Assembly (NCBI GenBank): GCA_035299085.1
Contig: DATGXG010000026.1
Coordinates: forward strand, 10,568 to 74,567
Length of the DNA: 64,000 nt
Direction: 5' to 3'
Source of the DNA: Bacteroidales bacterium
GTDB taxonomy: Bacteria > Bacteroidota > Bacteroidia > Bacteroidales > UBA10428
Of this stretch, positions 19,805 through 53,085 are shown piece by piece. The translations under genes and the position numbers were made by a program. The notes under the pieces are model-generated. The model made no database searches. It was not told the DNA's origin and worked only from the letters and a program-made list of their open reading frames with translations. Every line of letters begins with the position of its first letter. Position 1 is the stretch's first letter.

Positions 19805-19930
19805 ATGAAATCGTTTGAATGAATCGTTTGAATGAAATCGTTTGAGTAACTTCTTTCAAACTCTTTTTCAAACTCTTTTTCAAACTTCTTTCAAACCTTT
19901 TCTTTAAACAGCGAAGCGTTCAAACTTCTT
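19805..19930. repeat. Composite tandem-repeat element A: 3 x ATGA(A)ATCGTTTGA followed by 4 x T(C)TTT(T)TCAAAC, plus degenerate tail copies
   Basis: Seen directly. Left array 19805..19845, right array 19851..19896. Tail copies are CTTTAAAC at 19902..19909 and GTTCAAAC at 19918..19925. The GTTTGAA core of the left units is the reverse complement of the TTCAAAC core of the right units. The element fills the gap between convergent genes. Confidence 0.85.
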
Positions 19931-20432
19931 ATTGGTTTACAGAATTCATCCCCGAACTCATTTCGGGGCTTGCATCCGCATTCCAGGTTTCAAGTTTGAT
20001 TTTAAGCGTGCCGTCAGGCTGCTGTTCCCAGATTGTCAGATATTTACCGGCGTCTTCATTAATTTCATCCGATTGAGGCATGGTGAAACGGATATTGAAT
20101 TTTCCGATTTCAAGGATCATGTTTTCACATGGAACCGCATAGATAGTCTGGACTTCAAAGGATTTTACCTTCATACCGGTTGTGCTCATTTCGACAGTCG
20201 ATTTTCGGATAGCTGGCAGTCCTTCAATCATATCAGCGTTATTGGGCATTGAAATGGCATCTTCGGTATAATAACTGAGTGTTTTTTCAGTATTTCCTTC
20301 CATCATGGCTTTAGCCATCTCCTGGTTAACACGGGTGACTTTTGCCTTGAGATCTTCAGTACTTTGGGCCTGTAATGCTAGAGCTGTCCATCCTAAATAA
20401 ACGACAGCAAGAATCATTGTTTTTTTTTTCAT
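19929..20432 (-). CDS. Secreted SnoaL-like / DUF4440-type (NTF2 fold) protein
   Basis: 167 aa. Signal peptide (MILAVVYLGWTALALQAQS). Has a YYTEDAISMP...IWEQQPDGTLKIKLETWN pattern typical of DUF4440-like proteins. Family call is from memory. Confidence 0.55.
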   Translation of the reverse strand: MKKKTMILAVVYLGWTALALQAQSTEDLKAKVTRVNQEMAKAMMEGNTEKTLSYYTEDAISMPNNADMIEGLPAIRKSTVEMSTTGMKVKSFEVQTIYAVPCENMILEIGKFNIRFTMPQSDEINEDAGKYLTIWEQQPDGTLKIKLETWNADASPEMSSGMNSVNQ

Positions 20433-20519
20433 ATAAGTGGATTTAGTGGTATTAACTCACTAACAAATGTTTTCGTGAATTGATCAATTTTTATGTAACT
20501 TCAATCTTTCAATTACATT

Positions 20520-20948
20520 ATGGAAAACACTATAGCAGAATGTATCCGGTTTGCCAATGAGAACAAGGTTTGTTTCCTGGCTACTGATGAGAATGGTCAG
20601 CCCAGAGTGCGTGCGCTCGGATTCTGGTTTGCCGATGAGACCGGGTTTTATTTTCAAACAGGAATGATTAAGGATCTTTTCAGGCAACTGATCAAAAACC
20701 CGAAAGCAGAAGCATGTTTTTATAAACACGGACCTGATGCCGGTATTACCATGCGCATTTCGGGGGAAACTGAATTCGTAAACGATAAAAGCTTAAAGGA
20801 AAAGGTATTAAATGAACGGCCTTTTCTTAAAGAATTTGGTTTAACTGTCGACAGTCCGGGACTTATTATTTTCCGGATTGCCCATGGAAATGCATTTTTC
20901 TGGACGATGGAAAATAATCTGAAAAAAAAGAAGCTTATTCCGTTCTGA
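20520..20948 (+). CDS. Pyridoxamine 5'-phosphate oxidase-like FMN-binding split-barrel protein
   Basis: 142 aa. Contains NKVCFLATDENGQPRVRALGFWFADETGFYFQTG, typical of the PNPOx-like family. Confidence 0.7.
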   Translation: MENTIAECIRFANENKVCFLATDENGQPRVRALGFWFADETGFYFQTGMIKDLFRQLIKNPKAEACFYKHGPDAGITMRISGETEFVNDKSLKEKVLNERPFLKEFGLTVDSPGLIIFRIAHGNAFFWTMENNLKKKKLIPF

Positions 20949-20961
20949 TTCAAACCGTCAT

Positions 20962-23169
20962 TTAAATCTTCTTTGTACGCAGCCGAAGACTGTTGGAAAC
21001 GACCGAAACAGAACTTAATGCCATTGCAGCGGCGGCAATCATAGGATTCAGCATGATTCCCCACAGAGGGTATAATATCCCGGCTGCAATGGGGATTCCT
21101 ATCAGGTTATAAATAAAGGCCCAGAACAGGTTCTGACGAATTGTGCCGACTGTGTATTTCGATAAACGAATGGCAGCCGGAATCTTGCTGAGATCGGACG
21201 ACATGATTGTCATACCTGCAACATCAATAGCAATATCGGCTCCCTGTGCCATGGCGACGCTTACATCAGCTTCAGCAAGTGCCTGTGAATCGTTCACTCC
21301 GTCACCCACCATAGCCACCACTTTACCCGTTGATTGCAGTTCTTTTATAAAAAAAGCTTTATCCGATGGCATCATATTCGCCCTGTAACGAGTGATACCT
21401 GCTCGTGAAGCTATAACCTTTGCCGTATGATCATTATCTCCTGTGAGCATATATACTTCAGCACCGGTTTTCTGTAATTCAGAGATTGCATCGGCTGTAG
21501 ATGATTTCAGGATATCGGCAAGTCCGATAACCGCAAGAAGCCCGTTTTCGTCTGCAAAAAGCACCACCGTGTTGGCCTCTTCCTGCATGGCATTTATATA
21601 CTGCATCTGTCCTGCACTTATTGGAATTTCCTCATCGGCAAGCAGTTTAATATTTCCTGTAAAAAATGATTTGCCGTCAAACCGTGCTTTGACACCTTTA
21701 CCCGGAAGATTTTCAAAAAAACCCGGTTCACTATATTCTCCTGTTTGTTTTGACAGCGAAGATACAATAGCAGAAGCCAAAGGGTGCGAAGATAATTTTT
21801 CTATAGAAATAAGCAGCCGGGTATAGGCAGGTATGTCCTTTCCTTCTGCAAACCATTTAATGCCGGTTACGGCAGGGTGTCCGACCGTCAGAGTACCTGT
21901 TTTATCCATCACAATGGCATTGATATCCCTTATCCTTTCAAGGCTTTCCGCGTCCTTGATAAGGATTCCGTTCCTGGCTCCTTTTCCCATACCCACCATG
22001 ATGGCAGTTGGTGTGGCTAATCCGAGCGCACATGGACAGGCAATGACAAGCACAGTAACCATGGCCAGAAGTGCCCGTGAAATGTCGCCACCAAAGAACA
22101 TCCAACCGGCAAAGCTCAACAGCGAAATAGTTATAACAACAGGCACGAAAATTCCGGCCACCCTGTCCACTGTTTTTTGCACAGGAGCTTTACTGCCCTG
22201 GGCTTGTTGAACCATTTGAATAATTCTTGAAAGAACGGTTTCGGAACCCACCTGTTTCGCAATCATTACGAAGCTCCCGTTCAGATTCATTGTGCCGGCA
22301 AAAACTCTGTCACCCTTTGTTTTGTCTACAGGCATCGATTCACCCGTGATTGTGCTTTCGTCAATTGAGGAGGTGCCTGAGAAGAATTCGCCGTCAACCG
22401 GAATTTTGTCGCCGGGTTTCACCCGAAGTCGGTTTTCATGCCTGACAAGGGATACGGGTACTGTTTTTTCATTTCCCTGTTCGTCGAGCATCACGGCCAG
22501 GTCGGGTTGTAATCCCATTAATTTCCGTATGGCAGAAGAAGTCTTTGATTTGGCTCTTTCTTCAAGGACTTTACCAATAAGAATAAAAGCTATTACAACG
22601 GCTGAGGCCTCATAATACACGTGCGGATGTAATCCCCTTGAGTGCCAGAAATGCGGATAGAAAGTGTTGAAAAGACTGAAAAGAAAGGCGATCCCGGTGC
22701 TCAAAGCAACCAGCGTATCCATATTGGCCTGCCCATGCCGTGCAAGCCGGAACGCGTTAATGAAAAAATTCCTGCCAAAAAAAACAAGAACAGGCAGGGT
22801 AAGTACAAGCATAATATAGTTGGCAAAAGGAACTGACATGAAAAACATGGAAATAACCATTACGGGAAATGCCAGTGCCAGTGCACCTGTCATATTGAAA
22901 AGCAGCTGCCTGTAGTGACTTTGTTGTTTTTCTTCGGCGCTCTCAGTCTTGTCTTCTTCAATGATGAGATCGTATCCTATCGAACGGATGGCTGATTGAA
23001 GTAAAGTGGCATCAACAGGCTCCTTAAACTCTATAACTGCTGACGAATTGGCATAGTTCACTGCTGCGCTGGCTACACCGGGCTGACGCTTCAGAGTTCT
23101 CTCCACATTCAGAGCGCACGAGGCACAGCTCATGCCTTCGACAGGATACGTTTTTGTAATTGATTTCAT
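20962..23169 (-). CDS. copA: Copper-translocating P1B-type ATPase
   Basis: 735 aa. N-terminal HMA domain with GMSCASCA, membrane CPC motif ([11 protein letters not shown]), DKTGTLT, TGD and GDGVNDS. Confidence 0.92.
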
Positions 23170-23182
23170 AGGTGACTACAGG

Positions 23183-23308
23183 CTATCCAAAAATCCTGCC
23201 AAGCCCAAACAATACGGCAAGCCATATCAAACCTTTAACCAGGAAGAAAAGAAATCCTATAAGTCCGATTCGTTTAAACCAATTGAAGGCAGATTTTTTA
23301 AAATGCAT
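23183..23308 (-). CDS. Possible 41-aa single-TM small protein upstream of copA
   Basis: Manual translation gives MHFKKSAFNWFKRIGLIGFLFFLVKGLIWLAVLFGLGRIFG. It has a basic N-terminus followed by one hydrophobic helix. It ends 13 nt before the copA start. No homology evidence. Confidence 0.25.
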   Translation of the reverse strand: MHFKKSAFNWFKRIGLIGFLFFLVKGLIWLAVLFGLGRIFG

Positions 23309-23319
23309 GAAAACATTTT

Positions 23320-25935
23320 TCAGGGAATAACAACTGTTGGCCCTGTAATGTTTATTTCATCACTTAGTGTATTTTTATCACCAGCAACCGGTTGTTTACC
23401 ACCGGCATATACAATGAATTTGCCGGCTTCTTCAACACGATTGTATTCTTCATTGATAACCGAAAAACTTTCAGCTTTCAAAACGAGTTCAACTTTTTTG
23501 GTTTCTCCGGCTTTAAGCATCACTCTTTTAAATCCGGCCAGTGCTTTAAGCGGAACAGGAACTGATGCGCCCTGGTTGGTCACAAATACTTCAACGACTT
23601 CTTCACCATCCATCTTTCCTGAATTGGTAACGTCAACAGATATCTTTACATCAGATCCGGCCGGCGATGATTCAGGAATGGTAAGATTTTTATATGTGAA
23701 TGTGGTATAGCTTAATCCGTAGCCAAAACCCCATAACGGTTCGCCTTTAAAATAACGGTATGTTCTGCCTTCCATGCGGTAATCCTTGAAGTCAGGCAAA
23801 TCGTTAACCGATTTATAGAAGGTAACGGGCAATCGGCCAGCCGGGTTGAAATCACCGGACAGCATGCGGGCAAGGGCTGTACCTGTGGCTTCACCGGGGT
23901 AAAATGCCTGGATAATTGCCGGAACGTTTTCATTTTCCCAATTCATAGCCATGGCACTGCCGCTAAAATTAACGTAAATAATGGGTTTGCCTGTTTTTTT
24001 GAGCTCTTTCAGCAGGTCTTCCTGAACAGAAGGAAGATTAATGTGAGTGCGGTCACCGTGTGAAAACCCGTCAATGCTGAGCGGCATTTCTTCACCTTCG
24101 AGACTGGAAGAAATACCACCGCAGAATACGATCACATCTGCCTTTTTGGCAGCATCAACCGCTTCTTTTTTGTAATCCTTTGATGTTTCAACCCATTCGA
24201 ATTTTGCTGAAGGTTCAACTGCATTGTTCCACCAGAAGGGTACCACAGTAAATGTAACTTCAAGATTATATTTCTGGCCTTTTACAAGTTCCACGAGATT
24301 TTTTCCGGGATCTTTCCCGTTAATTTTTACACGGGTATTACCTCCGAATGTAAAAGTACCTGATTTATCTGGAATAAGAATTCCTGTCCATCTAACTGAA
24401 AAACTATCTTCCATCTGGTTATCAACCGGTGAGCGCATCCAGTAAAAATTCACTGAGCTGTCAACACGCACAAATGCAGGCTGGCCTTTCAATCCTTCTT
24501 CACTGTAGTATTCAGCTTTAAGACCATTTTTAAGCGCTCCGTTTTCATCATGAAATAAATTCTTATACGGTACCGGCTGGTAATTGGTATAAATGCCGGG
24601 TACTATGGGACAACCGGCGGAATAAAGCACATTTTGCTTTCCCATCCTGGTTCTCAGTCCTGTGAGCGGTGTGATGGGAACTACAGGTTCCCCGTTGTAG
24701 TTAGCAATCAGAATGTCAAAGTTGTCGGCATTAGGTCCGATAAGAGCGATTTTCTTTCCTTTTTTCAATGGAAGGATGCCATCGTTTTTGAGCAGTACAA
24801 GTGATTTCTCGGCTGCTCTTTCCGCGAGTTGCAAATGTTCTTTGGAGCCTACAACTGAAAAGGGTATTTTGGAATAAGGAACCATGATATCCGGATCGAA
24901 CATTCCCAGTTTGATTCTGGCTTCAAAAAGCCTGAGAAGTGATGTGTTCAGGTCTTTTTCATTGATCACGCCGTTTTGTATGGCCGAATCAAGGTTGCTT
25001 ACAAGAAAACTGGCAGGAGTTTCACAATTCAGGTCTGTACCGGTGGAAACCGACCATCCCCAGGCACGGGATGAGTTCTCAACCACATGATGGGCGTTTT
25101 TTGTATAGAAATCACTGATGGCACCGCAATCCGATGTGATATAACCGGTAAAGCCGAATTCCTTTCTGAGAATGTTACTGAGAAGCAGGTCTGAGCCGCA
25201 GCATGGCTTATCACGGAACCTGTTATAGGCACACATTACCGATTGTACATTGGCTTCTTTCACCGAAGCTTTGAATGCAGGTAGGTAAGTATCATACAGG
25301 TCGCGGTCATTAACAAACACATTATCGACATGGCGGCTGTATTCCGGTCCGCTATGAACAGCATAATGCTTGGCCGTTGCAATGGTTTTAAGATAGTGAG
25401 GGTCATTTCCCTGTAATCCTTTAATGAAATTTACAGCCATTCTGCCTGTCAGATATGGATCTTCTCCGTAGGTTTCCTGGCCTCTTCCCCAACGGGGATC
25501 GCGGAATATATTGATGTTCGGCGACCAGAAGGTAAGTCCGGTATAAATGCTGTGCACATTGTTTTTAAGAAAATTATGATGCTTGGCCCTTGCTTCATCG
25601 GAAATAGCGGTAGCCACAGTGAACATCAGTTCTTCATCAAAGGTAGCTGCAAGACCAATAGCCTGTGGAAACACTGTGGCCTTACCGGCTCTTGCCACGC
25701 CGTGAAGGCATTCATTCCACCAATCATACTGCGGAATACCAAGACGCGGAATGGCTTCACTATGGTTGAAAAACTGGGTTACTTTTTCCTGCAAAGTAAG
25801 TCGCGAAACAAGGTCATATGCTCTTTCCTCAACCGGCAAAGACGGATCCTGGAAAGGATATTGATAGGTGGTTTGTCCGATGACAGTGAAAATTGCCGGA
25901 AGTATTAAACACAAGGTGAAAAGTATTCTGCGCAT
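23320..25935 (-). CDS. Secreted glycoside hydrolase family 3 beta-glucosidase with an inserted PA14 domain
   Basis: 871 aa. Signal peptide. GH3 N-terminal domain with nucleophile context GYITSDCGAI. PA14-like insert (LKAEYYSEEGLKGQPAFVRVDSSVNFYW). C-terminal fibronectin-like domain. Confidence 0.9.
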   Translation of the reverse strand: MRRILFTLCLILPAIFTVIGQTTYQYPFQDPSLPVEERAYDLVSRLTLQEKVTQFFNHSEAIPRLGIPQYDWWNECLHGVARAGKATVFPQAIGLAATFDEELMFTVATAISDEARAKHHNFLKNNVHSIYTGLTFWSPNINIFRDPRWGRGQETYGEDPYLTGRMAVNFIKGLQGNDPHYLKTIATAKHYAVHSGPEYSRHVDNVFVNDRDLYDTYLPAFKASVKEANVQSVMCAYNRFRDKPCCGSDLLLSNILRKEFGFTGYITSDCGAISDFYTKNAHHVVENSSRAWGWSVSTGTDLNCETPASFLVSNLDSAIQNGVINEKDLNTSLLRLFEARIKLGMFDPDIMVPYSKIPFSVVGSKEHLQLAERAAEKSLVLLKNDGILPLKKGKKIALIGPNADNFDILIANYNGEPVVPITPLTGLRTRMGKQNVLYSAGCPIVPGIYTNYQPVPYKNLFHDENGALKNGLKAEYYSEEGLKGQPAFVRVDSSVNFYWMRSPVDNQMEDSFSVRWTGILIPDKSGTFTFGGNTRVKINGKDPGKNLVELVKGQKYNLEVTFTVVPFWWNNAVEPSAKFEWVETSKDYKKEAVDAAKKADVIVFCGGISSSLEGEEMPLSIDGFSHGDRTHINLPSVQEDLLKELKKTGKPIIYVNFSGSAMAMNWENENVPAIIQAFYPGEATGTALARMLSGDFNPAGRLPVTFYKSVNDLPDFKDYRMEGRTYRYFKGEPLWGFGYGLSYTTFTYKNLTIPESSPAGSDVKISVDVTNSGKMDGEEVVEVFVTNQGASVPVPLKALAGFKRVMLKAGETKKVELVLKAESFSVINEEYNRVEEAGKFIVYAGGKQPVAGDKNTLSDEINITGPTVVIP

Positions 25936-25985
25936 TGCTTTTTTATTTTAGTTTGATAACATCAAATCTAAACATTTTATGCTTT

Positions 25986-26114
25986 AAGCGCAAGAATCCA
26001 AACTATGATCGCATCGCGATGGCTATCGAATATAATAGTCATCATTTCAAAGAGCAAGCCGATCTCGACCAGGTGGCATCCATTGTAAACCTGAGTGAAC
26101 CTTTAAACCTTTAA
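25986..26114 (+). pseudogene. Remnant of an AraC-family HTH domain (first helix-turn-helix only), truncated by repeat element B
   Basis: The frame starting at 25986 reads KRKNPNYDRIAMAIEYNSHHFKEQADLDQVASIVNLSEPLNL*. This matches the AraC-family pattern (hydrophobic-x-x-Y-I-x-x-H-F-x-x-x-I/L-x-L-x-x-L/V-A-x-x-x-x-L/M-S). There is no upstream start or N-terminal domain, and the frame dies inside the CTTTAAAC repeats. Confidence 0.35.
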
Positions 26115-26145
26115 ACCTTTAAACATTGGAACCTTTAAACCCTTG
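26097..26145. repeat. Repeat element B: GAAC-CTTTAAAC x3 in tandem plus one spaced copy
   Basis: Seen directly. CTTTAAAC at 26101..26108, 26109..26116, 26117..26124 and 26133..26140, with GAAC preceding at 26097 and 26129. Confidence 0.8.
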
Positions 26146-26253
26146 TTTTAGTGTATAGTCTGGTCCGACCCCGGAAAAAAAACATTTGCATCCTCTATTG
26201 TTTCGTTATAATTTCACGCAAATAAAATCAGAAAAAAGGAAAAGGGGCGGCAG

Positions 26254-28029: not shown

Positions 28030-28030
28030 T

Positions 28031-28098
28031 AGCCCCGGCCTTAAGGCCGGGGACTATAAATCCGGGTCATCCATTGCCCCCGGCCTTAAGGCCGGGGC
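28031..28098. repeat. Twin perfect 20-nt palindromes CCCCGGCCTTAAGGCCGGGG (probable bidirectional terminator hairpins)
   Basis: Seen directly at 28033..28052 and 28078..28097, separated by 25 nt. They lie between the convergent ClC and DUF4389-like genes. Each can form a 10-bp GC-rich stem if the hairpin loop forms within the central TTAA. Confidence 0.8.
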
Positions 28099-28105
28099 TA
28101 TTGAA

Positions 28106-28690
28106 CTAAGCCTTTCCGTTAAACGGCGGATACTGATCGGTCAGAAATGCAATGTAAAGATTTACCCGTGTATTCCATCTCATGAGTCCGGTGACATATT
28201 CATGAAATACGGCAGGATACTTACCTGTGAAAAGAACAGCAAACCACGAGATGAAAACAATTACCATAGTGGCGATGGTTCTGAAAAATAATAAGAATCC
28301 ATGTGGAATCATAACATACAGCCAGCCCAGGAAAAGACGAAGGAGAAGCAAGACCCTGCTTATTTTTTCGGGATATTCCAGGTTGAAATTCAGGTTCTCG
28401 TCCTGAACATCCAGGCCAAAACCGGGATAACCGTCAGAAAGGTTCATCATTGCCGTGTTCACCCTAAGGTTCCAACGGTTGAAACCAACCTGGTAATCAA
28501 ACATGGTTTTGGGATATTTCCCTGTGAAGAGAACGATCCAGAAAGCTACAAAGGTCAGGATTGCAGACCAGATACCAAGGAAAAACAGGATAATTCCGTG
28601 AGGAATCGCAATGTACAGCCAGCCGAAAAAGGTGCGTAAAAGCAATTGGAGCCGCGAATAGCGGTCCTGTGTTTTAATTGTTAATTCCAT
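28106..28690 (-). CDS. DUF4389-like membrane protein with an internal tandem duplication
   Basis: 194 aa. Two homologous halves, each LLLR-F-GWLY--IPHG--LFF ... LFTGKYP ... RWN-RVN ... YP-F. Family name is from memory. Confidence 0.65.
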   Translation of the reverse strand: MELTIKTQDRYSRLQLLLRTFFGWLYIAIPHGIILFFLGIWSAILTFVAFWIVLFTGKYPKTMFDYQVGFNRWNLRVNTAMMNLSDGYPGFGLDVQDENLNFNLEYPEKISRVLLLLRLFLGWLYVMIPHGFLLFFRTIATMVIVFISWFAVLFTGKYPAVFHEYVTGLMRWNTRVNLYIAFLTDQYPPFNGKA

Positions 28691-28811
28691 GGAATGAGAT
28701 TTAAGTGGTTGATATACTAAATGTAAGGAATTATTAAAAATATGATGCTGCTGTTGGTTAATATCTCATAAACAATTGCAATTTTATTTTTTAACTCATT
28801 GGCAAAACCAT

Positions 28812-28819
28812 TACTTTTG
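28812..28819 (+). promoter_or_regulatory. Candidate Bacteroidota -7 box TACTTTTG upstream of glyA
   Basis: Exact TAnnTTTG match 19 nt before the ATG at 28838. It lies inside the longer ORF-track reading frame that starts at 28799, which argues for the shorter start. Confidence 0.3.
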
Positions 28820-28837
28820 AAACTAAAATTTACATCC

Positions 28838-32898: not shown

Positions 32899-32955
32899 AA
32901 GAATTTTTATTGGTTTGCTAAAATTAAATAAACGTTGAACACAGGTGTTTATTTT

Positions 32956-37464: not shown

Positions 37465-37515
37465 AGTTTACACAACGTCAAAATTGCGAAAAAAGTTTTT
37501 AATTTAAAGGCAATA

Positions 37516-38538: not shown

Positions 38539-38829
38539 GCTAAAATAACTGTTCGTCAAAATAAATGTACCGTTGGTCAATTTTATAACCGCCTTTATAA
38601 TAATTAGTGAAACCGTAAACCAGCCATTTTTCCCGTTTATATCGGTTTCGGTCAACTGGCTTGGAACAAGGGATGCAGACATGATAAAACATTGAAAAAA
38701 GCCTCTGCGCTGTAGTACGGAATTTTATTATAAATTTGTTACAGCCGATCTTTTTTTTGGATTTATTCAGAAACATTTTGATTTTGTGGGCGTATAGGCT
38801 ACACACACGATTTATCATACAGCGATTTT

Positions 38830-39204
38830 ATGGATAACCTGCTGATCGAAAGTACCAAAAAAACACCTGATGTTGCCTTCAACAAAGATGGCAGAATGAG
38901 GATCAGCGGTCGTTCCATTCCTGAAGATGCTTCCAAGTTTTATGATGATCTTTTTGAGTGGGTTTATTATTATTGTCAAAATCCGCCTGAATCCACAACT
39001 ATTGATATTGAACTTGAGTATTTCAACAGTGGATCTTCAAAAGCATTGCTTCATATTTTAAGGGCCCTCAAGGATATTGTAAGAAAAGGCAATAAGCTTA
39101 CAATTAACTGGTATTACGAAGAGGGAGATGATGACATCATGGAAAGAGGGGAATACTACGAATCCATCCTCGAAATCAAATTCAATTTTATTCAGACGGA
39201 TTAA
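38830..39204 (+). CDS. DUF1987 / SiaC-family protein
   Basis: 124 aa. LLIESTKKTPDVAFNKDGRMRISGRSIPEDASKFYDDLFEWV...IELEYFNSGSSKALLHIL...INWYYEEGDDD matches my memory of the DUF1987 pattern (TP-V-F ... G-S-PE ... LEYFNS-S-K). Confidence 0.7.
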   Translation: MDNLLIESTKKTPDVAFNKDGRMRISGRSIPEDASKFYDDLFEWVYYYCQNPPESTTIDIELEYFNSGSSKALLHILRALKDIVRKGNKLTINWYYEEGDDDIMERGEYYESILEIKFNFIQTD

Positions 39205-39208
39205 AGAA

Positions 39209-39331
39209 GTGACTAGTGACTGGTGACTGGTGACTGGTGACTGGTGAAGGCCGGGGCTATAGGTATCCGGTATCCAGTATTCAGTATCCAGTATCCAGTA
39301 TCCGGCATCCGGCATCCGGTATCTTTTTTTT
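39209..39331. repeat. Composite tandem-repeat element D: about 5.5 x GTGACTG, spacer AGGCCGGGGCTATAG, about 8.7 x GTATCCR, then T8
   Basis: Seen directly. Heptamer array 1 at 39209..39247, spacer 39248..39262, heptamer array 2 at 39263..39323, T-run 39324..39331. ACTGG in array 1 is complementary to CCAGT in array 2. This gives 5-bp helices separated by 2x2 mismatches. Confidence 0.85.
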
Positions 39332-39362
39332 GCACTACCTTTACATTTAAACACCAATCGTT

Positions 39363-40463
39363 ATGAATAATAAGGTAATAGGCATGAAGTTGTCGTTCCT
39401 GCTCCTGGCAATAATTCTTTTATTGTATGCCCTCATTATGGCTAAGGAGTTTCTTTATCCTCTTACCTTCGGAATCCTGATATCTTACCTGCTTTACCCT
39501 ATTGTTAATTACCTTGAGAAAAGAGGTTTTCCCCGTATTTTCTCAATTCTTGTACCTATTATTCTCGCTGTAGCCATCGTGGCTATCATTGCCATAGCGG
39601 TTGTTAAAAGAATGAACCTGTTTCTGGACGACCTGCCACAATTTAAGGAGAAAACCATTGAACACCTAACAATCATCCAACAATACGTGGAAAACAATTT
39701 CGGGGTGTCGGCAAGCCGACTTAAAAATTTTATAGTGAACAGTATTTTCGACCTCGGCAAGCAATCGGGAAAACTATTTTCAGCTACAACCGGAACACTT
39801 TTCGCCCTTTTCATGCAGCCTGTTTATGTTTTTTTGTTCCTTTATTACCGTACAAAGTTTGCTTACTTCATTCTTCAGCTGACTGGCAGGGAATACAGGC
39901 TTATAACCATTAATATCTTAAGAGAAATCGCAACAGTGGTAACACGCTATATGCTGGGTGTAACCACAGTGGTGTTTATCCTGTGCTTCTTTAATTCATT
40001 AGGACTGCTGATTATCGGGTTGAAATATGCGCTCCTGATCGGGGTTATCCAGGCCCTATTCAGTTTTATTCCGTATTTCGGTAATGTGATCGGAGGAGCC
40101 ATGACATTGCTGTTCGCGTTGCTTACCCAGGATTCCGAGGTCATTGCCATCCGCATCCTTGCTTTTGTTTTCATCGTGCACTTTTTTGAAAATAATCTAC
40201 TTTCTCCCTATATAGTCGGGAATAATATCAGGCTTAATCCTTTTGTTATAATTATCGGACTTATAGCAGGTGCTATGATCTGGGGAGTTCCGGGCATGCT
40301 GGTTACAATCCCTTTTCTTGCCATGCTGAAGATAATTCTCAAAAGAATACCCCGTCTGGAACCCTATGCATACCTGCTGGGAACCCGTGGTACGAAGCGG
40401 CATGCTCTGACGAGGCAGAATTTGATGAGGTTCCTGGGGAAATGGAAGAAAAAGTCCGTTTGA
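39363..40463 (+). CDS. AI-2E family transporter (PerM/UPF0118)
   Basis: 366 aa, about 8 TM helices. Characteristic C-terminal region IPYFGNVIGG...LSPYIVGNNIRLNPFVIIIGLIAGAMIWGVPGMLVTIP. Confidence 0.85.
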   Translation: MNNKVIGMKLSFLLLAIILLLYALIMAKEFLYPLTFGILISYLLYPIVNYLEKRGFPRIFSILVPIILAVAIVAIIAIAVVKRMNLFLDDLPQFKEKTIEHLTIIQQYVENNFGVSASRLKNFIVNSIFDLGKQSGKLFSATTGTLFALFMQPVYVFLFLYYRTKFAYFILQLTGREYRLITINILREIATVVTRYMLGVTTVVFILCFFNSLGLLIIGLKYALLIGVIQALFSFIPYFGNVIGGAMTLLFALLTQDSEVIAIRILAFVFIVHFFENNLLSPYIVGNNIRLNPFVIIIGLIAGAMIWGVPGMLVTIPFLAMLKIILKRIPRLEPYAYLLGTRGTKRHALTRQNLMRFLGKWKKKSV

Positions 40464-40470
40464 TCAGGCT

Positions 40471-40658
40471 AAATGGTTCCAAATAGTTCCAAATAGTTCC
40501 AAATGGTTCCAAAGTGGTTTAAACGTGGTTCCAAATGGTTCCAAATGGCTCCAAAGTGGTTTAAACGTGGTTCCAAATGGTTCCAACAAGGTAACCTTGA
40601 AACAACCTTGAAACAACCTTGAAACAACCTTGAAACAACTTTGAAACAACTTTGAAAC
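40471..40658. repeat. Composite tandem-repeat element E: decamer array AAATGGTTCC (with a 42-nt higher-order duplication) followed by 6 x AAC(C/T)TTGAAAC
   Basis: Seen directly. Decamer-based array 40471..40584, containing two 42-nt super-units at 40501..40542 and 40543..40584. 11-mer array 40593..40658. Together they fill the whole convergent gap between the AI-2E gene and the cyclase gene. Confidence 0.85.
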
Positions 40659-40664
40659 AAATTT

Positions 40665-42062
40665 TTATTCTTCCACTATCAGATTCCTGATGCGTTCAAT
40701 CTGAAGTTGTTTATTAACCTCACGCAGATTACGGGCTGTTTCAGTAAAGTACTGGTGCCCGCTGATAAACTTTACCTGCATGCTGTTCCAGTCCTTAAGT
40801 GATTTTATTTTTGATCGTTCTTTCAGTTCCATGAAAAGCAGGTTTGAAACGGGGATCATATCACTTCTTCCAAGGTAATCGAGGTCTGCATCACACATAA
40901 TTTTCTCAAGCTTATTGGCTGGTCGGGGAGGCAGTTTGGTAGCCATGATCAGTTCACAGATTAAATCAATCTGTGCCGTAGTATAATAATATTCAGTGAG
41001 CATTTCCCGTGCCACAAGGCAGCTGAAGTATTCATGATTATCATACGATATGGTATGCCCGGCGTCGTGGAACAAAGCAGCGGTTTTCAGTAACAGCAGC
41101 TCTTCATCAGTCACACCTTCCCCGATTCCGATGAGTTCCACCTGGGTAACCACATCCACTGTATGTTTTATATTATGATAAAACAGACTGGGCGGCAATT
41201 CTTTTTCGAGCTTATCGAGTAAATATTCCTGTAAATCAGTGAACTGTATCAACCCAAAACGCAGGCTGAATTTTTTGTTTGGAATAATCCCCTTGCCCTG
41301 TAAAGAATAATCTGTCTTAATGCTTTTTACCGAATAGAGGGTGATTTCACCTTCATATTTAACCGGCATTTTTTTATAATACTCACAATTGAACAGGTCT
41401 TTTACAAGTTCGTATGTAGTAGCTGATATGAGTATTTGTCCTTCTTCACAAAATTGCCTGATGCGGGCGGCATGGTTAACTGTTTCGCCTTTAACCTCAT
41501 AATGAGGTCGTTTTTTACCGCTTACATCGGCAATTACTGTTCCTGTATGTATTCCGATCCGGAGTTTCCAGATATTGCTGAACGCATTGGTGCGTTGCAG
41601 ATCCCTGAAAAAGTATTGCATTTCAATAGCCGCCAGCAATACTTCTATCGGATTGGTTATATTTTTCTGCGGAATACCTCCTACAAGCATGAGAGAATCG
41701 CCGATTGTACGGATGCTGCGAACCGGGAACTTGGTTACTACCTGCTGAAGCTTGATAAAAATTTCATCAAGTGAATCCACATAAAGTTTTGGATCCTGTT
41801 GGGATGTAATTTGTTCAAAACCGATCACGTCAGCATATAAGACAGTTGCAGTCTTAAACCGCATTACATGCGATTTCTTTTCTGTGCCCGGCTTTGTTGA
41901 AATTTCATTTTTACCCAGTTTATTGAGGAGGACTTTATATTTTTCTATTTCCTGCGAAAGGAATTCATTTTGCCGGTTCAGTTTTTCATTCTCGGAAGTA
42001 AGGGATTTATTCTGAGAAATAATTTCTGCAATGTGCTTTAATATACCTGTTTTTCTGGGCAT
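40665..42062 (-). CDS. Coiled-coil + class III adenylate/guanylate cyclase + HD-domain fusion protein
   Basis: 465 aa from the ATG at 42062. N-terminal heptad-rich segment (SENEKLNRQNEFLSQEIEKYKVLLNKL). Cyclase motifs VLYADVIGFEQIT, IRTIGDSLMLVGG, RIGIHTGTVIADVSG and KGETVNHAARI. C-terminal HD motifs YHNIKHTVDV and AALFHDAGH. Confidence 0.8.
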   Translation of the reverse strand: MPRKTGILKHIAEIISQNKSLTSENEKLNRQNEFLSQEIEKYKVLLNKLGKNEISTKPGTEKKSHVMRFKTATVLYADVIGFEQITSQQDPKLYVDSLDEIFIKLQQVVTKFPVRSIRTIGDSLMLVGGIPQKNITNPIEVLLAAIEMQYFFRDLQRTNAFSNIWKLRIGIHTGTVIADVSGKKRPHYEVKGETVNHAARIRQFCEEGQILISATTYELVKDLFNCEYYKKMPVKYEGEITLYSVKSIKTDYSLQGKGIIPNKKFSLRFGLIQFTDLQEYLLDKLEKELPPSLFYHNIKHTVDVVTQVELIGIGEGVTDEELLLLKTAALFHDAGHTISYDNHEYFSCLVAREMLTEYYYTTAQIDLICELIMATKLPPRPANKLEKIMCDADLDYLGRSDMIPVSNLLFMELKERSKIKSLKDWNSMQVKFISGHQYFTETARNLREVNKQLQIERIRNLIVEE

Positions 42063-42124
42063 CAAATATCTACGTGACTAAAAATTACTATTCTTTTACG
42101 TTCACTATACCGGAAAAGGTTTAT

Positions 42125-42132
42125 TAATTTTG
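42125..42132 (+). promoter_or_regulatory. Candidate -7 box TAATTTTG upstream of uvrB
   Basis: Exact TAnnTTTG match 40 nt before the ATG at 42172. It overlaps the TTG used as the start by the ORF track, so the shorter start is favoured. Confidence 0.3.
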
Positions 42133-42171
42133 ACATTTGTCACTAAAAGATTGATAACCGGACTTAAAATC

Positions 42172-44181
42172 ATGGATTTCACTTTAAACTCACAATACTA
42201 TCCAACAGGGGATCAGCCCCGGGCTATTGAGCAGCTTACTTCAGGCATAAAGAGGGATCTGAAATACCAGACACTTCTTGGAGTCACAGGATCAGGCAAG
42301 ACTTTCACCATGGCAAACGTCGTAACCAAACTTAAACGGCCAACCCTTGTACTAAGTCATAACAAAACCCTTGCGGCACAGCTTTTTGGTGAGTTCAAGC
42401 AGTTCTTTCCGAATAATGCTGTTGAATATTTTGTTTCCTATTACGATTATTATCAGCCTGAGGCCTACCTGCCTGTAACGGATACCTATATTGAAAAGGA
42501 CCTTTCAATTAATGATGAAATAGAAAAACTCCGACTGAGCACCACGTCATCCCTTTTATCAGGCAGGCGGGATGTGATTGTGGTGTCATCCGTATCATGC
42601 CTTTATGGTATTGGCAATCCTGAGGATTTCCACAGCAATACAATCCAGATCAGCAGGGGAGATTCAGTGGGGCGGAATTCATTTTTACGACAGCTTGTCG
42701 ACAGCCTTTACTCACGCAATGAAAACGAGTTTAAAAGAGGAAATTTCAGGGTGGCCGGCGATACGGTTGATGTATTCCTGGCTTACAGTGATTACGCATA
42801 CCGGATTATGTTCTTCGGTGATGAAATAGAAGAGCTGAAAATGTTTGATCCTGAAACGGGCATAACGCTTGAAGAAATGGAGCATGCCTCCATTTATCCT
42901 GCCAACATTTTTGTAACAACAAAAAGCAGGATGTTACAGGCTCTCGAATTGATCCAGGTTGACCTGGGCAAACAGATTGCTTTTTTCAAGGATATAGGAA
43001 AACATCTTGAGGCGAAAAGGCTGAAAGACCGTGTAACGTATGATCTTGAAATGCTCCAGGAGCTCGGGTATTGCCCGGGTATTGAAAACTATTCAAGATA
43101 TTTTGACGGCAGGCCTCCCGGACAACGGCCATTTTGCCTGCTCGACTATTTTCCTGAAGATTTTCTTACCATTATAGATGAAAGTCATGTGACTATTCCC
43201 CAGATCAGGGCGATGTACGGTGGCGACCATTCAAGGAAGCAGACACTGGTTGAATATGGATTCAGGATGCCCTCGGCCATTGATAACCGGCCTCTTAAAT
43301 TCGAGGAGTTTGAGAACCTGGTAGGGCAGATGGTATTTGTTAGCGCCACACCTGCCGATTATGAACTAGAGAAGTGTGAGGGAGTAATTGTCGAACAGCT
43401 TATCAGGCCCACCGGTCTGCTGGATCCTGTAATTGAAGTGAAACCATCGCTTAACCAGATCGATGATCTCCTGAAAGAAATCAGGGTGTGCATTTCAAAC
43501 AACGAGAGGGTACTTGTGACCACCCTGACCAAAAGGATGGCCGAGGAACTCACCAATTATCTCGTTCGCCTGGATATCAAATGCCGGTATATTCATTCGG
43601 ATGTGGAAACGCTGGAGCGCATCGAGATCATGGAAGGGTTACGAAACGGAACCTTTGATGTGCTCGTGGGGGTGAACCTGTTACGTGAAGGACTTGATCT
43701 TCCTGAGGTTTCGCTTGTTGCGATACTTGATGCCGACAAGGAAGGATTCCTGCGTTCGGAAAGGTCACTAACCCAAACGGCAGGTCGTGCCGCTCGTAAC
43801 CTGAGCGGGCGGGTGATCATGTATGCGACAAACATGACCGAATCAATGAAAAAAACTATTGATGAAACTAACAGGAGACGGGAAATTCAGCTCGCATATA
43901 ACGAAGCCAACGGGATTACGCCGAGGCAGATCGTCAAGGCCGCTTCAAACATACTCAATGACATTCGTCGCAAAACCGGCGACCGCCAGGTATATGTTGA
44001 GCCGGAAAAGGTAGATGTCGCCGCTGACCCGGTGGTTCAGTATATGACAAAGGATGCGCTGCAAAAAGCAATGGACAAGGCAAAAAAATCGATGGAAAAA
44101 GCTGCATCCGAACTGAATTTTATAGAAGCAGCACGATTCAGGGATGAAATGCTGGCTTATAAAGATTTATTATCCAAATGA
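42172..44181 (+). CDS. uvrB: Excinuclease ABC subunit B
   Basis: Starts MDFTLNSQYYPTGDQPRAIEQL. Walker A GVTGSGKTFTMANV, DESH box, helicase C motifs and a C-terminal UVR domain (FIEAARFRDEM). Confidence 0.95.
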   Translation: MDFTLNSQYYPTGDQPRAIEQLTSGIKRDLKYQTLLGVTGSGKTFTMANVVTKLKRPTLVLSHNKTLAAQLFGEFKQFFPNNAVEYFVSYYDYYQPEAYLPVTDTYIEKDLSINDEIEKLRLSTTSSLLSGRRDVIVVSSVSCLYGIGNPEDFHSNTIQISRGDSVGRNSFLRQLVDSLYSRNENEFKRGNFRVAGDTVDVFLAYSDYAYRIMFFGDEIEELKMFDPETGITLEEMEHASIYPANIFVTTKSRMLQALELIQVDLGKQIAFFKDIGKHLEAKRLKDRVTYDLEMLQELGYCPGIENYSRYFDGRPPGQRPFCLLDYFPEDFLTIIDESHVTIPQIRAMYGGDHSRKQTLVEYGFRMPSAIDNRPLKFEEFENLVGQMVFVSATPADYELEKCEGVIVEQLIRPTGLLDPVIEVKPSLNQIDDLLKEIRVCISNNERVLVTTLTKRMAEELTNYLVRLDIKCRYIHSDVETLERIEIMEGLRNGTFDVLVGVNLLREGLDLPEVSLVAILDADKEGFLRSERSLTQTAGRAARNLSGRVIMYATNMTESMKKTIDETNRRREIQLAYNEANGITPRQIVKAASNILNDIRRKTGDRQVYVEPEKVDVAADPVVQYMTKDALQKAMDKAKKSMEKAASELNFIEAARFRDEMLAYKDLLSK

Positions 44182-44237
44182 CTTACGAAGTCATTTAATT
44201 TCATTTTTTTTCATTTATTTTGCGCAAAATTATTTTT

Positions 44238-44798
44238 ATGGGTAAAGTATCGGATATATCCAAAGGCACGTTTGTAAGATATAACGGCGAAATTTCAATT
44301 GTTCTTGAATACGAACACCGCACTCCGGGTAACTTAAGGGCGTTTTACCAGGTTAAAATGCGTAACCTCAAATCCGGCAGGTTAATCGAACAACGGTTTC
44401 GTCCCGATGATGAAATGGAAATTGTTAGAGTTCATTTTAAAGAACAGCAATTCCTTTATATAGACGGAACGAACGTGGTGGTTATGGATAATGAAACCTA
44501 CGATCAGCTTCATATACCCAGGGAAACAATAGGCGAGGGTATTGACCTCTTAAAGGAAGGTGCCAATATTAAAGTTTACTTTGACGGTGAAGAACCCATA
44601 TTTGCTGAATTGCCGGTATCCGTTGAAATGGAAGTGACCTATACAGAACCCGGCATGAAAGGTGATACTGCAACCCGTACCCTGAAAACCGCCACCATTG
44701 AAACCGGTGCCCAGGTGAAAGTTCCCCTCTTTATCAACATCGGTGACCGGATCAAGATTGACACCAGGACCGGTGATTATATTGAGAGGGTCAGATAG
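44238..44798 (+). CDS. efp: Translation elongation factor P (atypical loop tip)
   Basis: 186 aa from MGKVSDISKGTFVRYNGE. Three-domain EF-P pattern with C-terminal VTYTEPGMKGDTAT...VKVPLFINIGDRIKIDTRTGDYIERV. The loop reads HRTPGNLRAF instead of the usual KPGKG. Confidence 0.9.
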   Translation: MGKVSDISKGTFVRYNGEISIVLEYEHRTPGNLRAFYQVKMRNLKSGRLIEQRFRPDDEMEIVRVHFKEQQFLYIDGTNVVVMDNETYDQLHIPRETIGEGIDLLKEGANIKVYFDGEEPIFAELPVSVEMEVTYTEPGMKGDTATRTLKTATIETGAQVKVPLFINIGDRIKIDTRTGDYIERVR

Positions 44799-44803
44799 TT
44801 TTT

Positions 44804-44897
44804 AGTTTCATGTTGTTTCATATGTTTCAAATTGTTTCAAATTGTTCTGAAACTACTTTGAAACTAAATGAAACCATATGAAACAACTTTGAAACAT
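44804..44897. repeat. Composite tandem-repeat element F: 5 x GTTTCA-containing units, then 5 x TGAAAC-containing units, forming a long imperfect hairpin
   Basis: Seen directly. GTTGTTTCATATG (44812..44824) pairs perfectly with CATATGAAACAAC (44875..44887). Inner GTTTCA/TGAAAC blocks also pair. The element lies between convergent efp and fabI. Confidence 0.85.
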
Positions 44898-47425: not shown

Positions 47426-47457
47426 ATCCTGTACAATTTAGTGCAAGATAATAAATT

Positions 47458-52791: not shown

Positions 52792-52809
52792 TGTAGAAAT
52801 TTGAAGGGA

Positions 52810-52817
52810 CAAATATA
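52810..52817 (-). promoter_or_regulatory. Candidate -7 box (TATATTTG on the minus strand) upstream of the SIS gene
   Basis: Exact TAnnTTTG match 19 nt upstream of the ATG at 52791. It overlaps the TTG start used by the ORF track. Confidence 0.3.
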
Positions 52818-52827
52818 GTAAAAGCGC

Positions 52828-53080: not shown

Positions 53081-53085
53081 TCCCA

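Follow-up and report, generated by a model that had tools for sequence, protein, structure and literature searches.

The closest described systems are the intergenic heptamer SSR arrays of Xanthomonas (GGGAATC) and Nostoc (GGGGAYT) reported by Rehm et al. in 2015, which are 89–93% intergenic, are located near the upstream ORF's end and seldom between divergent ORFs, and include 70–75 'inverted repeat pairs' per genome that are capable of forming stem-loops (PMC4692102). Their length varies among relatives and their type is constant; no function was found for them, and phase variation was judged unlikely (PMC4692102). According to the summary given in PMC4679880, they are included in the 'long simple sequence repeats' (LSSR) of Mrazek et al. 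2007. The cyanobacterial STRR are 7-bp intergenic tandem repeats forming hairpins near gene 3' ends, with suggested roles in transcript stability, termination and translational coupling (PMC2670836), and in Nostoc complementary heptamer arrays occupy one spacer downstream of hupS (PMC2408588). TAACTGA heptamer arrays were described by MacGregor in 2015 from Beggiatoaceae, cyanobacteria and five Bacteroidetes; these are unstructured direct repeats, found mostly just upstream of start codons, with one inverted pair reported (PMC4679880).

The DNA analyzed here is a window of 64,000 nucleotides from an uncultured Bacteroidales bacterium, in which five elements (A, D, E, F and G) share a common plan, in which a tandem array X is separated by 1–14 nt from a complementary tandem array Y. 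This architecture matches the repeat class known from Xanthomonas and cyanobacteria, and the earlier suggestion that no such class had been described is not supported, as paired heptamer arrays (PMC4692102), hairpin-forming STRR repeats (PMC2670836) and heptamer arrays in some Bacteroidetes (PMC4679880) had already been published. Like the Xanthomonas and Nostoc arrays, those of the window consist of short head-to-tail units, occurring singly or as an array with its inverse and capable of forming stem-loops; they are mostly intergenic, near the upstream ORF end and rare at divergent ORFs, with one unit family spread over the genome and lengths that differ between close relatives of constant unit type. 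Unlike them, the window units are AT-rich and incapable of forming G-quadruplexes, measure 7–14 nt (10–12 in the main family), often have different periods in X and Y, and belong to several unrelated types that coexist in the Bacteroidales host; moreover, at some junctions an unrelated array replaces that of the window in a relative about 90% identical. The likeness to STRR is one of design, in that both are intergenic short tandem units with hairpin potential close to gene 3' ends; STRR are heptamers, of which heterocystous cyanobacteria carry a few fixed sequences, whereas in the window D alone is heptameric. With the TAACTGA arrays they share intergenic short tandem units, a sporadic distribution including Bacteroidetes, whole-unit indels and spacers assembled from several different arrays, but the window elements are paired and positioned past stop codons.

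Paired arrays and their unit families

Arrays were located with Tandem Repeats Finder (TRF), and every array of the original prediction was recovered where it had been placed. The features are as follows, with the strand given where one was assigned.

19805–19848, A array X, (A)TGAAATCGTTTGA, core GTTTGA, about 3 units of 13–14 nt (TRF 19805–19845, 3.0 copies)
19852–19909, A array Y, TTTCAAACTCTT, core TCAAAC, about 4–5 units of 12 nt (TRF 19854–19901, 4.2 copies)
26098–26141, B, lone array of AACCTTTA, 5.5 copies, unit family as in E (TRF and unit comparison)
39209–39247, + strand, D array X, GTGACTG, 5.6 copies
39247–39260, + strand, D hairpin apex AAGGCCGGGGCTAT, identical to one half of the GC-rich palindrome at 28030–28105
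39262–39323, + strand, D array Y, (G/A)G(T/C)ATCC, 8.9 copies (TRF unit GGTATCC)
39324–39331, + strand, T8 run immediately after the D hairpin
40471–40586, E array X, AAATGGTTCC, 11.2 copies, containing a 42-nt higher-order repeat in 2.4 copies
40593–40660, E array Y, AACCTTGAAAC, 6.2 copies
44805–44846, F array X, GTTTCA plus 3–4 nt, 4.3 copies (TRF unit GTTTCAAATT)
44848–44896, F array Y, TGAAAC plus 4–5 nt, about 4–5 copies
52828–53080, element of about 250 bp with inverted ACGTCATTGCGAG ends and G at its centre
52888–52925, G array X, CACAGAGGTT, 3.7 copies (TRF)
52934–52978, G array Y, 21-nt unit TGTCTTCTCAGTGGTTCTCTG, 2.1 copies, composed of two 10–11 nt sub-units and complementary to G array X

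The plan predicted for A, D, E and F is borne out both by the TRF arrays and by their locus-specific complementarity, but the count of four was incomplete, since G at 52888–52978 is a fifth paired element. As had been claimed, array X begins a few nucleotides past a stop codon: 1 nt past that of the M28 peptidase gene in A (17524–19803, +), 4 nt past the SiaC gene in D (38830–39204), 7 nt past the AI-2E gene in E and 6 nt past the EF-P gene in F (44238–44798). Array Y of A ends about 20 nt short of the stop codon of a DUF4440 gene that runs convergently (19929–20432, −), and array Y of both E and F ends 4 nt before the convergent stop, belonging to an adenylate cyclase-HD gene (40665–42065, −) and an enoyl-ACP reductase gene (44901–45731, −), respectively. 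D is followed by the AI-2E transporter gene, which starts at 39363, 31 nt past the T8 run and 39 nt past the arrays, and G sits between a histidine kinase gene (53086–55092, −) and a SIS-domain gene (52180–52812, −). All five paired elements are at gene 3' ends: the flanking genes converge in three cases, share one strand in two and diverge in none, and the spacers between the flanking genes are built almost wholly of arrays. A direct array of the TAACTGA sort was also observed upstream of EF-P, at 44191–44221.

The same arrays were recovered in independent assemblies, comprising Logan assemblies of five sequencing runs and one JGI metagenome, so they are not assembly artefacts, a doubt that had been raised at the outset. 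Comparison of units places A, B, E and F in one dispersed family of the GTTTCAA type with units of 8–14 nt, in agreement with the relatedness of cores first proposed, and an exact 17-mer, GAAACAACTTTGAAACA, is common to array Y of E and of F. The kinship of B extends to its units but not to the paired design: it lies in the divergent promoter region of a GH3 gene (−) and a CLC channel gene (+), and neither a partner array nor, on folding of the element, a hairpin was found. D and G each have units of their own type, outside this family.

These family relations, together with the copy-number changes described below, support the suggestion of an expanding repeat family. They could also indicate that the elements belong to a small family of MITE-, REP- or REPIN-like type, mobile or spread by copying, with gene 3' ends as its target and arrays produced by amplification within the element. 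REP/BIME/REPIN sequences of enterobacteria and pseudomonads are dispersed hairpin repeats found after genes or at convergent junctions, frequently in clusters of direct and inverted copies; they make the mRNA upstream more stable and are able to act as terminators. The REP unit is an imperfect palindrome of 20–40 nt spread by a RAYT transposase. The window elements occupy the same niche, but their individual units are not palindromic. Half of a REP-like double palindrome (28030–28105) is found at the D apex, and the GTTTCAA-type family recurs at both E and F in the relative L109 and at F in L024, and is absent from the same junction as F in L025–L028. G lies within the element with inverted ACGTCATTGCGAG ends, of which a second copy, without arrays, is located at 59595–59812. 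There is a Bacteroidales precedent of an intergenic tandem array inside a MITE with inverted-repeat ends, comparable with G in architecture, in BrickBuilt of Porphyromonas gingivalis, whose internal minisatellite has a 23-nt unit in one orientation (PMC4596501), whereas G holds two complementary arrays. Mobility is nevertheless unlikely, given that A, D, E and F lack terminal inverted repeats and target-site duplications and have no unique sequence outside their arrays, that the family cores occur outside arrays at chance frequency only, that the units of D and G are unrelated, and that a scan of the genes flanking the elements found no transposase.

Complementarity and folding

In a 5 × 5 matrix of X–Y duplex energies, A, D and G each paired most strongly with their own partner; E and F, as members of one family, cross-pair. 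Against a null of cross-locus array pairs, p values of 0.006–0.014 were obtained for D, E and F and of 0.04–0.07 for A, and when the loci were all taken together, 11 of the 24 adjacent pairs of arrays fell in the lowest 5% of this null on at least one strand (binomial P about 7e-6). The X–Y complementarity is real and locus-specific. Whole elements fold as long imperfect hairpins with periodic internal loops. Measured against dinucleotide shuffles, F and G reach z-scores of −7 to −8, E reaches −3.5 (− strand only), and D and A have modest values of −2.4 and −2.3, respectively. E folds well on the − strand, with G·U wobbles (−60 kcal/mol), and pairs poorly on the + strand because of C·A mismatches, and G (MFE of −50 kcal/mol, z = −7.7) folds better on the strand opposite its genes. 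In F, the spacers between cores are mirror-matched as well (TAT/ATA, GTT/AAC; z about −8), and hairpin potential is kept in three lineages (window, L109 and L024) with different units and copy numbers. As the favoured strand flips between F orthologs, being + in L024 and − in L109, and G favours the strand opposite its genes, there is no consistent signature of RNA-level selection.

In D, CUGG of array X pairs with CCAG or CCGG of array Y, with G·U wobble on the + strand, and the substitutions (C/U in X, A/G in Y) are both pairing-neutral via G·U on the transcribed strand; the fold reaches −48 kcal/mol on the + strand versus −35 on the −. The T8 run is kept in the about 88%-identical relative L109, where both arrays differ (4 and 2.5 units in X and Y, versus 5.6 and 8.9 in the window), the apex sequence is missing and the ortholog barely folds (z = −0.2). 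Since this conserved T8 adjoins the hairpin, D alone among the elements is built like an intrinsic terminator, with an A-rich run before the stem-loop and T8 after it. A, E, F and G depart from the canonical intrinsic terminator in having no U-tract after the stem, and a simple terminator scan flagged none of the four. The stems of the elements, 40–100 nt long and broken every 7–12 nt, also differ from those of intrinsic terminators. The classical terminators predicted at 52147 and 58047 were confirmed.

The periods of E, F and G (10–11 bp, equal to a turn of the helix, each unit having an A/T run) and the presence of one unit family at four loci would also suit elements acting as double-stranded DNA, either as phased protein-binding sites or as curved or gyrase-attracting DNA where convergent transcription accumulates supercoils. 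In E. coli, BIMEs in comparable places are bound by gyrase and IHF. This reading is considered highly improbable: periods are 7–8 bp in D and most arrays of relatives and 12–14 bp in A, core motifs are not enriched outside arrays, and a specific binding protein is ill-suited to units that are unrelated between relatives at the same junction.

Distribution, turnover and possible role

Across 12 related loci, arrays covered 0.18% of coding DNA; in spacers, the coverage was 2.6% where the genes diverge, 7.3% where they are in tandem and 31.5% where they converge, so that the proposed preference for gene 3' ends is real. Within the window, seven convergent spacers exceed 40 nt, and all but that at 445–509 carry a hairpin, which is a GC hairpin or terminator at 28030, 52140 and 58024 and an array hairpin in A, E and F; the latter three occupy the place held at other convergent junctions by bidirectional terminators (52140, 58024). 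When the window was compared with L109, six array-free spacers were equal in length within 1 nt, whereas the three array spacers differed by 43, 79 and 59 nt. The arms had grown unequally, with 1.6 more X and 6.4 more Y units in D and 7 and 2 more in E, respectively, and the A junction of L109 holds an unrelated element of the same design. Array X of E is two units longer in sample SRR5823600, and exact copy number is not tightly constrained, in keeping with the polymorphism anticipated.

Polymorphic copy number, and the position of D 39 nt upstream of the AI-2E gene, would be expected of phase-variable contingency switches or of register-shifting attenuators tuning the downstream gene. The change in copy number suggested earlier is indeed seen, but phase variation is not supported, because the arrays lie past stop codons, outside ORFs and promoter spacers; for four of the five elements, placed past the stop codons of upstream or convergent genes, gain or loss of units touches neither a reading frame nor a promoter spacer. 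The flanking genes are of housekeeping types, such as EF-P and FabI, and phase variation was judged unlikely for the known class (PMC4692102). This is the least probable of the readings considered.

A more serious alternative, possible though not the preferred one, is that the arrays do nothing and build up in a lineage prone to slippage of 7–14 nt units wherever length change is harmless, their complementarity being inherited from a small hairpin (an old terminator, a REP-like palindrome or a MITE) whose arms multiplied. The very fast turnover and unequal arm growth point in this direction, as do the inconsistency of the favoured strand and the published studies of the known class, in which no function was found either (PMC4692102). 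Close relatives carry unrelated arrays at the same junction, or in some cases none; about half of the adjacent array pairs in relatives are not complementary, and the EF-P 3' arrays of L033 and L035 and the cyclase gene 3' array of L025 are hardly structured. Enrichment in convergent spacers is also predicted by this neutral model, because such spacers tolerate length change. It accounts less readily for the constancy of the D T8 run while the arrays change, the wobble-neutral substitutions of D on the transcribed strand, the mirror order of the F spacers, the hairpin potential of F retained in three lineages with different units, and the array hairpins that take the place of bidirectional terminators.

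The explanation favoured here, to which an even chance is given, is that the elements are lineage-specific repeats of 7–14 nt of the LSSR/STRR kind, grown by slippage on hairpin arms and acting as RNA 3'-end hairpins. Each arm of a seed hairpin would have been multiplied head-to-tail by replication slippage, and such multiplication of both arms would give n units of X followed by m complementary units of Y; the arms do grow and shrink independently and quickly. Transcription from either flanking gene would then yield a long hairpin with regular internal loops that tolerates register shifts, which at the RNA 3' end may stop or slow convergent read-through, shield the end from exonucleases, or both; D, with its conserved T8, would amount to a standard intrinsic terminator whose stem has overgrown. 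The paired arrays are a real and fast-changing feature of the spacers of this Bacteroidales bacterium. Their probable role is that of hairpins at 3' ends and, for D, that of a terminator.

Paired arrays behind genes

Elements A, D, E, F and G, the last added in the follow-up, each consist of an array X of short tandem units, a spacer and an array Y complementary to X, and element B is a lone array (array X of element A is referred to as A-X, and so on). Tandem Repeats Finder recovered all four paired elements of the original prediction (A, D, E and F) at the positions proposed for them, and the periods were 7 (D), 8 (B), 10–11 (E, F and G) and 12–14 nt (A), with 3–11 copies.

Repeat elements in the window (arrays from Tandem Repeats Finder; neighbouring genes from the ORF map and Pfam)
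Element A: 19805-19845, 13–14-nt unit ×3, then 19854-19901, 12-nt unit ×4.2; convergent M28 peptidase and DUF4440 genes on either side
Element B: 26098-26141, single array between divergent genes, no fold
Element D: 39209-39247, GTGACTG ×5.6, then 39262-39323, GGTATCC ×8.9; + strand genes for SiaC and an AI-2E-family transporter on either side
Element E: 40471-40586, AAATGGTTCC ×11.2, then 40593-40660, AACCTTGAAAC ×6.2; AI-2E gene and convergent adenylate cyclase-HD gene
Element F: 44805-44846, GTTTCAAATT ×4.3, then 44848-44896, TGAAAC-type units; EF-P and convergent enoyl-ACP reductase gene
Element G: 52888-52978, CACAGAGGTT ×3.7, then a complementary 21-nt unit ×2.1

On the ORF map, the X array starts 1 nt past the stop codon in A, 4 nt in D, 7 nt in E and 6 nt in F, as expected from the predicted start near stop codons, and the Y arrays of E and F end 4 nt from the stop codon of the opposite gene, so that the arrays make up nearly the entire spacer. 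Element B was excluded from the paired design, having no partner array and no hairpin (z-scores of +0.6 and +1.5) and lying in a divergent promoter region. Two ORFs of ~100 aa, at 52763-53086 (minus strand, spanning element G) and 38540-38818, run across repeat elements or spacers and are unlikely to be genes.

Array coverage was evaluated over 12 related loci with ~215 kb of coding DNA, some of them orthologous and the counts thus not fully independent, and was found to be 0.18% in coding DNA, 2.6% in divergent spacers, 7.3% in same-strand (tandem) spacers and 31.5% in convergent spacers, in agreement with the proposed placement at gene 3′ ends. No complementary pair was found between divergent genes, either in the window or among the relatives' pairs with flanking genes examined. 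Of the window's convergent spacers exceeding 40 nt, seven in all, six hold a GC hairpin or terminator (28030, 52140 and 58024) or else one of the array hairpins A, E and F, the exception being 445-509. All paired arrays follow stop codons, outside ORFs and promoter spacers, and the neighbouring genes are of housekeeping type, which does not support phase-variable contingency repeats, an option that had been considered originally. AT-rich arrays were also observed 13–20 nt before the start of EF-P in the window (44191-44221, TCATTTATTT) and in two related loci, L024 (646-672, AATTATG) and L026 (868-901, TGAAAAG). These start-proximal arrays, with differing units in three lineages, resemble the TAACTGA arrays near start codons of Beggiatoaceae; in the window, EF-P starts from the ATG at 44238 and not from the TTG at 44220.

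Long hairpins with evenly spaced internal loops were obtained for all five paired elements. Measured against dinucleotide shuffles, F and G had the lowest z-scores (about −7 to −8), followed by E on the minus strand only (−3.5), D (−2.4) and A (−2.3). When duplex energies were computed for every X with every Y, the arrays of A, D and G each paired best with their own partner, and E and F cross-paired because they share a unit family. The arrays of the window and of the related loci retrieved, 73 in total, were pooled, and against a null of pairs drawn from different loci, 11 of 24 adjacent array pairs fell in the lowest 5% on at least one strand (binomial P ~7e-6, even with 10% allowed per pair). 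The complementary X and Y cores of the original prediction were thus upheld by folds, duplex matrix and cross-locus null, and inverted pairs were also found in the relatives L004, L005, L024, L065, L075 and L079. The same array sequences occur in Logan assemblies of the public sequencing runs SRR5823596, -597, -600, -601 and -602, with element F fully spanned and identical to the window in SRR5823602 and SRR5823597, and the same loci are present in JGI metagenome 3300044712; this recurrence in independent assemblies rules out an assembly artefact. The exact copy numbers of D and E rest on the window's own assembly, since no short-read contig spans either fully: short-read assemblies are interrupted by such arrays precisely where genes end, and the Logan contigs end inside D and E. 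The observation is confirmed, on firm statistical grounds.

Unit families and known repeat classes

Local alignments (z-scores of 4–17) placed A-Y, B, E-X, E-Y, F-X and F-Y in one family, as the related cores had indicated, and the exact 17-mer GAAACAACTTTGAAACA is common to E-Y and F-Y; D and G have units of their own. Outside the arrays, TTGAAAC, TTCAAAC and TTTAAAC were counted 21, 19 and 17 times, respectively, compared with ~18–19 expected from a first-order model, so a dispersed single-copy motif was rejected. MITEs are marked by terminal inverted repeats, target-site duplication and several copies with common ends; elements A, D, E and F are arrays only, with no shared ends, whereas G lies inside a MITE-like frame, a ~250-bp element (52828-53080) with inverted ACGTCATTGCGAG ends and a second copy at 59595-59812. 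The end motif of this MITE-like family is ACGTCATTGCGAG(GAGC), inverted, and single copies of it were seen in the related loci L043 and L053; the copy at 59595-59812 has additional inner inverted CGACGAAGCAAT segments and a fold of −116 kcal/mol over 342 nt. Two copies of a perfect 20-nt GC palindrome, CCCCGGCCTTAAGGCCGGGG, were noted at 28030-28105, between the CLC channel gene and the convergent gene at 28106-28690, in a REP-like region with a fold of −58 to −62 kcal/mol. The apex of D (39247-39260) is an exact half of this palindrome.

A search of the whole window against Rfam at gathering thresholds gave no match, and the E-value mode applied to the elements returned only sub-threshold generic hairpin (miRNA precursor) models plus CRISPR-DR49 (30 bits against a threshold of 41). 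A CRISPR array was rejected on account of this sub-threshold score and of contiguous units without unique spacers. REP, BIME and REPIN elements are built on imperfect-palindrome units of 20–40 nt, with many copies per genome and an associated RAYT transposase, whereas the window units are of 7–14 nt and not individually palindromic. Heptamer repeats (STRR, 7 bp) forming hairpins near gene 3′ ends have been described in cyanobacteria (PMC2670836), and complementary heptamer arrays within one spacer in Nostoc (PMC2408588); the cyanobacterial type is set apart by unit length and taxon, being a heptamer set of heterocystous hosts, whereas only D has a 7-nt unit and the host here belongs to Bacteroidales. 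Intergenic heptamer arrays were also reported in five Bacteroidetes by MacGregor 2015 (PMC4679880), in whose summary Mrazek et al. 2007 appear with a survey of 'long SSRs' of 5–11 nt and a slippage hypothesis.

The closest likeness was found with the heptamer arrays GGGAATC and GGGGAYT of Xanthomonas and Nostoc studied by Rehm et al. 2015 (PMC4692102). These are 89–93% intergenic, lie near the upstream ORF's end, are under-represented where ORFs diverge and form 70–75 stem-loop-capable 'inverted repeat pairs' per genome. The arrays are transcribed, and their length but not their type differs between Xcc and Xac; no function is known for them. The window elements share the head-to-tail units in at least three copies (the class has units of 5–11 nt, A being slightly above 11 nt), the non-coding bias, the proximity to ORF ends, the under-representation between divergent genes, the array followed by its inverse (A, D, E, F and G) and the variable copy number at constant position and type (D, E and F in the syntenic relative L109, F in L024 and E-X in SRR5823600). 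An exception to the constancy of type is the A junction in the relative L111, where an unrelated element is found. The G-rich unit GGGNATC, the G-quadruplex and the preference for four units have no counterpart in the window, whose units are AT-rich without G3 tracts, and G3N4 repeats occur only in the AGGGACW arrays of the relatives L004 and L005; this places the window elements in the broad class and not in the specific G-quadruplex family. The elements are thus an AT-rich family of 10–12-nt units plus other unit types within a known but functionally unexplained repeat class. With the inverted repeat pairs of Xanthomonas and Nostoc there is a described class of this kind, none having been known to the original prediction; of that reading, a repeat family at the 3′ ends of genes that expands and is prone to slippage stands, while the undescribed architecture does not.

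Turnover in related genomes

The nearest genomes were uncultured Bacteroidales MAGs with ~65% protein identity, and remoter homologues of one flanking protein bear the name Prolixibacteraceae. Tandem arrays of 5–14-nt units were sporadic among EF-P-anchored metagenomic relatives, with none in 18 incidentally fetched Streptococcus loci, and the dominant unit differed in each array-rich relative (AGGGACW in L004/L005, AATTATG in L024 and AATTCAG in L075). Within one species, E-X in SRR5823600 has two units (20 nt) more than in the window, with new 31-mers missing from the latter. Together with the dispersed A/B/E/F family, this unit-wise change in length fits the predicted slippage-prone, expanding repeat family.

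Comparison with L106/L109, ~88% identical to the window, showed six array-free spacers equal within 1 nt (58/57, 51/51, 292/291, 56/56, 38/38 and 32/32), whereas the array spacers measured 115, 122 and 161 nt in the relative against 158, 201 and 102 nt in the window. In L109, D has 4 and 2.5 units without the apex insert and with the T8 tract kept, E has about 4 and 4 units, and F consists of TGTTCCAYAT ×7 (X) and TGAAACAACYT ×6 (Y), resembling E of the window; the unit counts indicate that the two arms change independently. In L024, whose EF-P is 92% identical, F comprises 8 and 4 units and the spacers between its cores are different, and in L025–L028 (80–89%) the EF-P junction is 10–35 nt long without an array.

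Relatives 72–92% identical carry unrelated arrays at the same gene ends (EF-P, adenylate cyclase and M28/DUF4440). The 3′ end of EF-P is followed by F-type, GTGACAA/TTGGTAA or CAATTRT units or by no array, and that of the cyclase gene by E-type units, GTCWTGCR ×6 or AGGGACT ×4. At the A junction, L111 (Ga0453684_0108605, ~90% identical) has at 664-795 an unrelated element of the same X/Y design (MFE −55 kcal/mol, z-score −5), composed of two copies of the 41-nt GCTAGGCGAAGTCTGTGACTTCGTCYTAACGGARACC, each with an inner hairpin, and two of the complementary 17-nt AAACTACGCTTAGCC.

Gene order also differs, being SiaC, AI-2E and the convergent cyclase in the window (38830-42065) and L109, and cyclase, AI-2E and convergent SiaC in the outgroups L004, L005 and L025. 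The AI-2E gene is thus inverted precisely between D and E, the two junctions with arrays. Recombination of D with E is not supported as the cause, their units being unrelated. Another spacer of L004 (2774-2995) and L005 (2476-2675) has AGGGACA ×6 directly after the stop codon and CTTGTCT ×4 at 43 nt before the next start codon; the AGGGACA arrays are of the G3N4 form and capable of forming G-quadruplexes. The pair brackets ~150 nt, partly conserved between both MAGs, which the arrays might loop out as a structured leader or a small RNA, and the orthologous spacer of the window (47426-47457) is 32 nt long without arrays. In L005, ~165 nt (9800-9965) of the ~275-nt spacer upstream of AI-2E consist of four successive unrelated arrays (TGCAGTCA, GCACATTA, ATTCATA and CAACTAA) plus a two-unit AACCTCA repeat, and no mutual complementarity was found among them.

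Possible RNA hairpins or by-products of slippage

The preferred account of these arrays is that the arms of a pre-existing hairpin multiply through replication slippage, and that the resulting RNA hairpin at the 3′ end would serve as a terminator, an insulator or a block to exonucleases. The terminator option of the original prediction holds for the form of D, in which a stem-loop (MFE of −48 kcal/mol on the + strand against −35 kcal/mol on the − strand) is directly followed by T8, but not for that of the others, the U-tract being missing in A, F and G and reduced in E to T5, 3 nt after a weak + strand fold. A simple terminator scan flagged none of the elements and was uninformative, its hits equalling the shuffle expectation, and no specific report of tandem-repeat hairpins as terminators in Bacteroidetes turned up in a literature search.

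An RNA role is favoured by the conservation of the T8 of D in L109 while the arrays change, by the C/U variation in X and A/G variation in Y of D, which keep wobble pairing on the transcribed strand, by the AGGGACA...CTTGTCT pairs of L004/L005, where full pairing is attained only via G·U on the transcribed strand, and by the strong hairpin potential of F in three lineages with different units. It is disfavoured by the lack of a U-tract in A, E, F and G, by a D ortholog in L109 that hardly folds and by the non-complementarity of half of the relatives' adjacent arrays. Strand asymmetry (G·U against A·C) points both ways, being on the transcribed strand in D and L004/L005, tied in L075 and L079, opposite to the gene strand in G and flipping among F orthologs. 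A purely neutral origin, with the arrays as by-products of slippage without function, likewise predicts the enrichment in convergent spacers; the T8 of D, conserved despite the change in its arrays, and the hairpin potential of F, retained with differing units, speak against it. On weighing these points, a functional RNA hairpin is given an even chance, and the neutral origin is regarded as unlikely, though worth serious consideration. Considerably more doubtful is the proposal, prompted by the unrelated arrays that relatives carry at the same gene ends, with the same XnYm design at M28/DUF4440 (41- and 17-nt units), that architecture and not sequence is kept at the junctions. Selection might repeatedly have favoured hairpin 'insulators' between convergent genes that can expand and tolerate shifts of register, or a dedicated genome-specific mechanism might seed and amplify one unit family at many loci. 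The descriptive account, in which tandem arrays, mostly inverted pairs, follow genes, have hairpin potential, belong in part to a dispersed family and turn over rapidly by whole units, is, as to repeat class and origin by whole-unit change, much more secure than either the functional or the neutral reading.

To our knowledge, neither a function nor a spreading mechanism has been established for the long-unit tandem repeats of bacterial spacers, on record for 35 years in cyanobacteria, Xanthomonas and Beggiatoaceae. The window adds to this class an uncultured Bacteroidales lineage in which arrays take up about one third of all DNA between convergent genes and, the repeats being AT-rich, G-quadruplex formation cannot be the explanation. 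The comparison of close relatives is unusually clean, as changes of length are confined to the spacers with arrays, each arm expands on its own and unrelated arrays swap at the same junction. The comparative evidence for unit-wise turnover and for replacement by unrelated arrays at the same junctions is a useful addition, as is the exclusion of G-quadruplexes, and the lineage is well suited to testing whether such hairpins act as terminators or insulators of convergent transcription or are the trace of slippage-prone replication.
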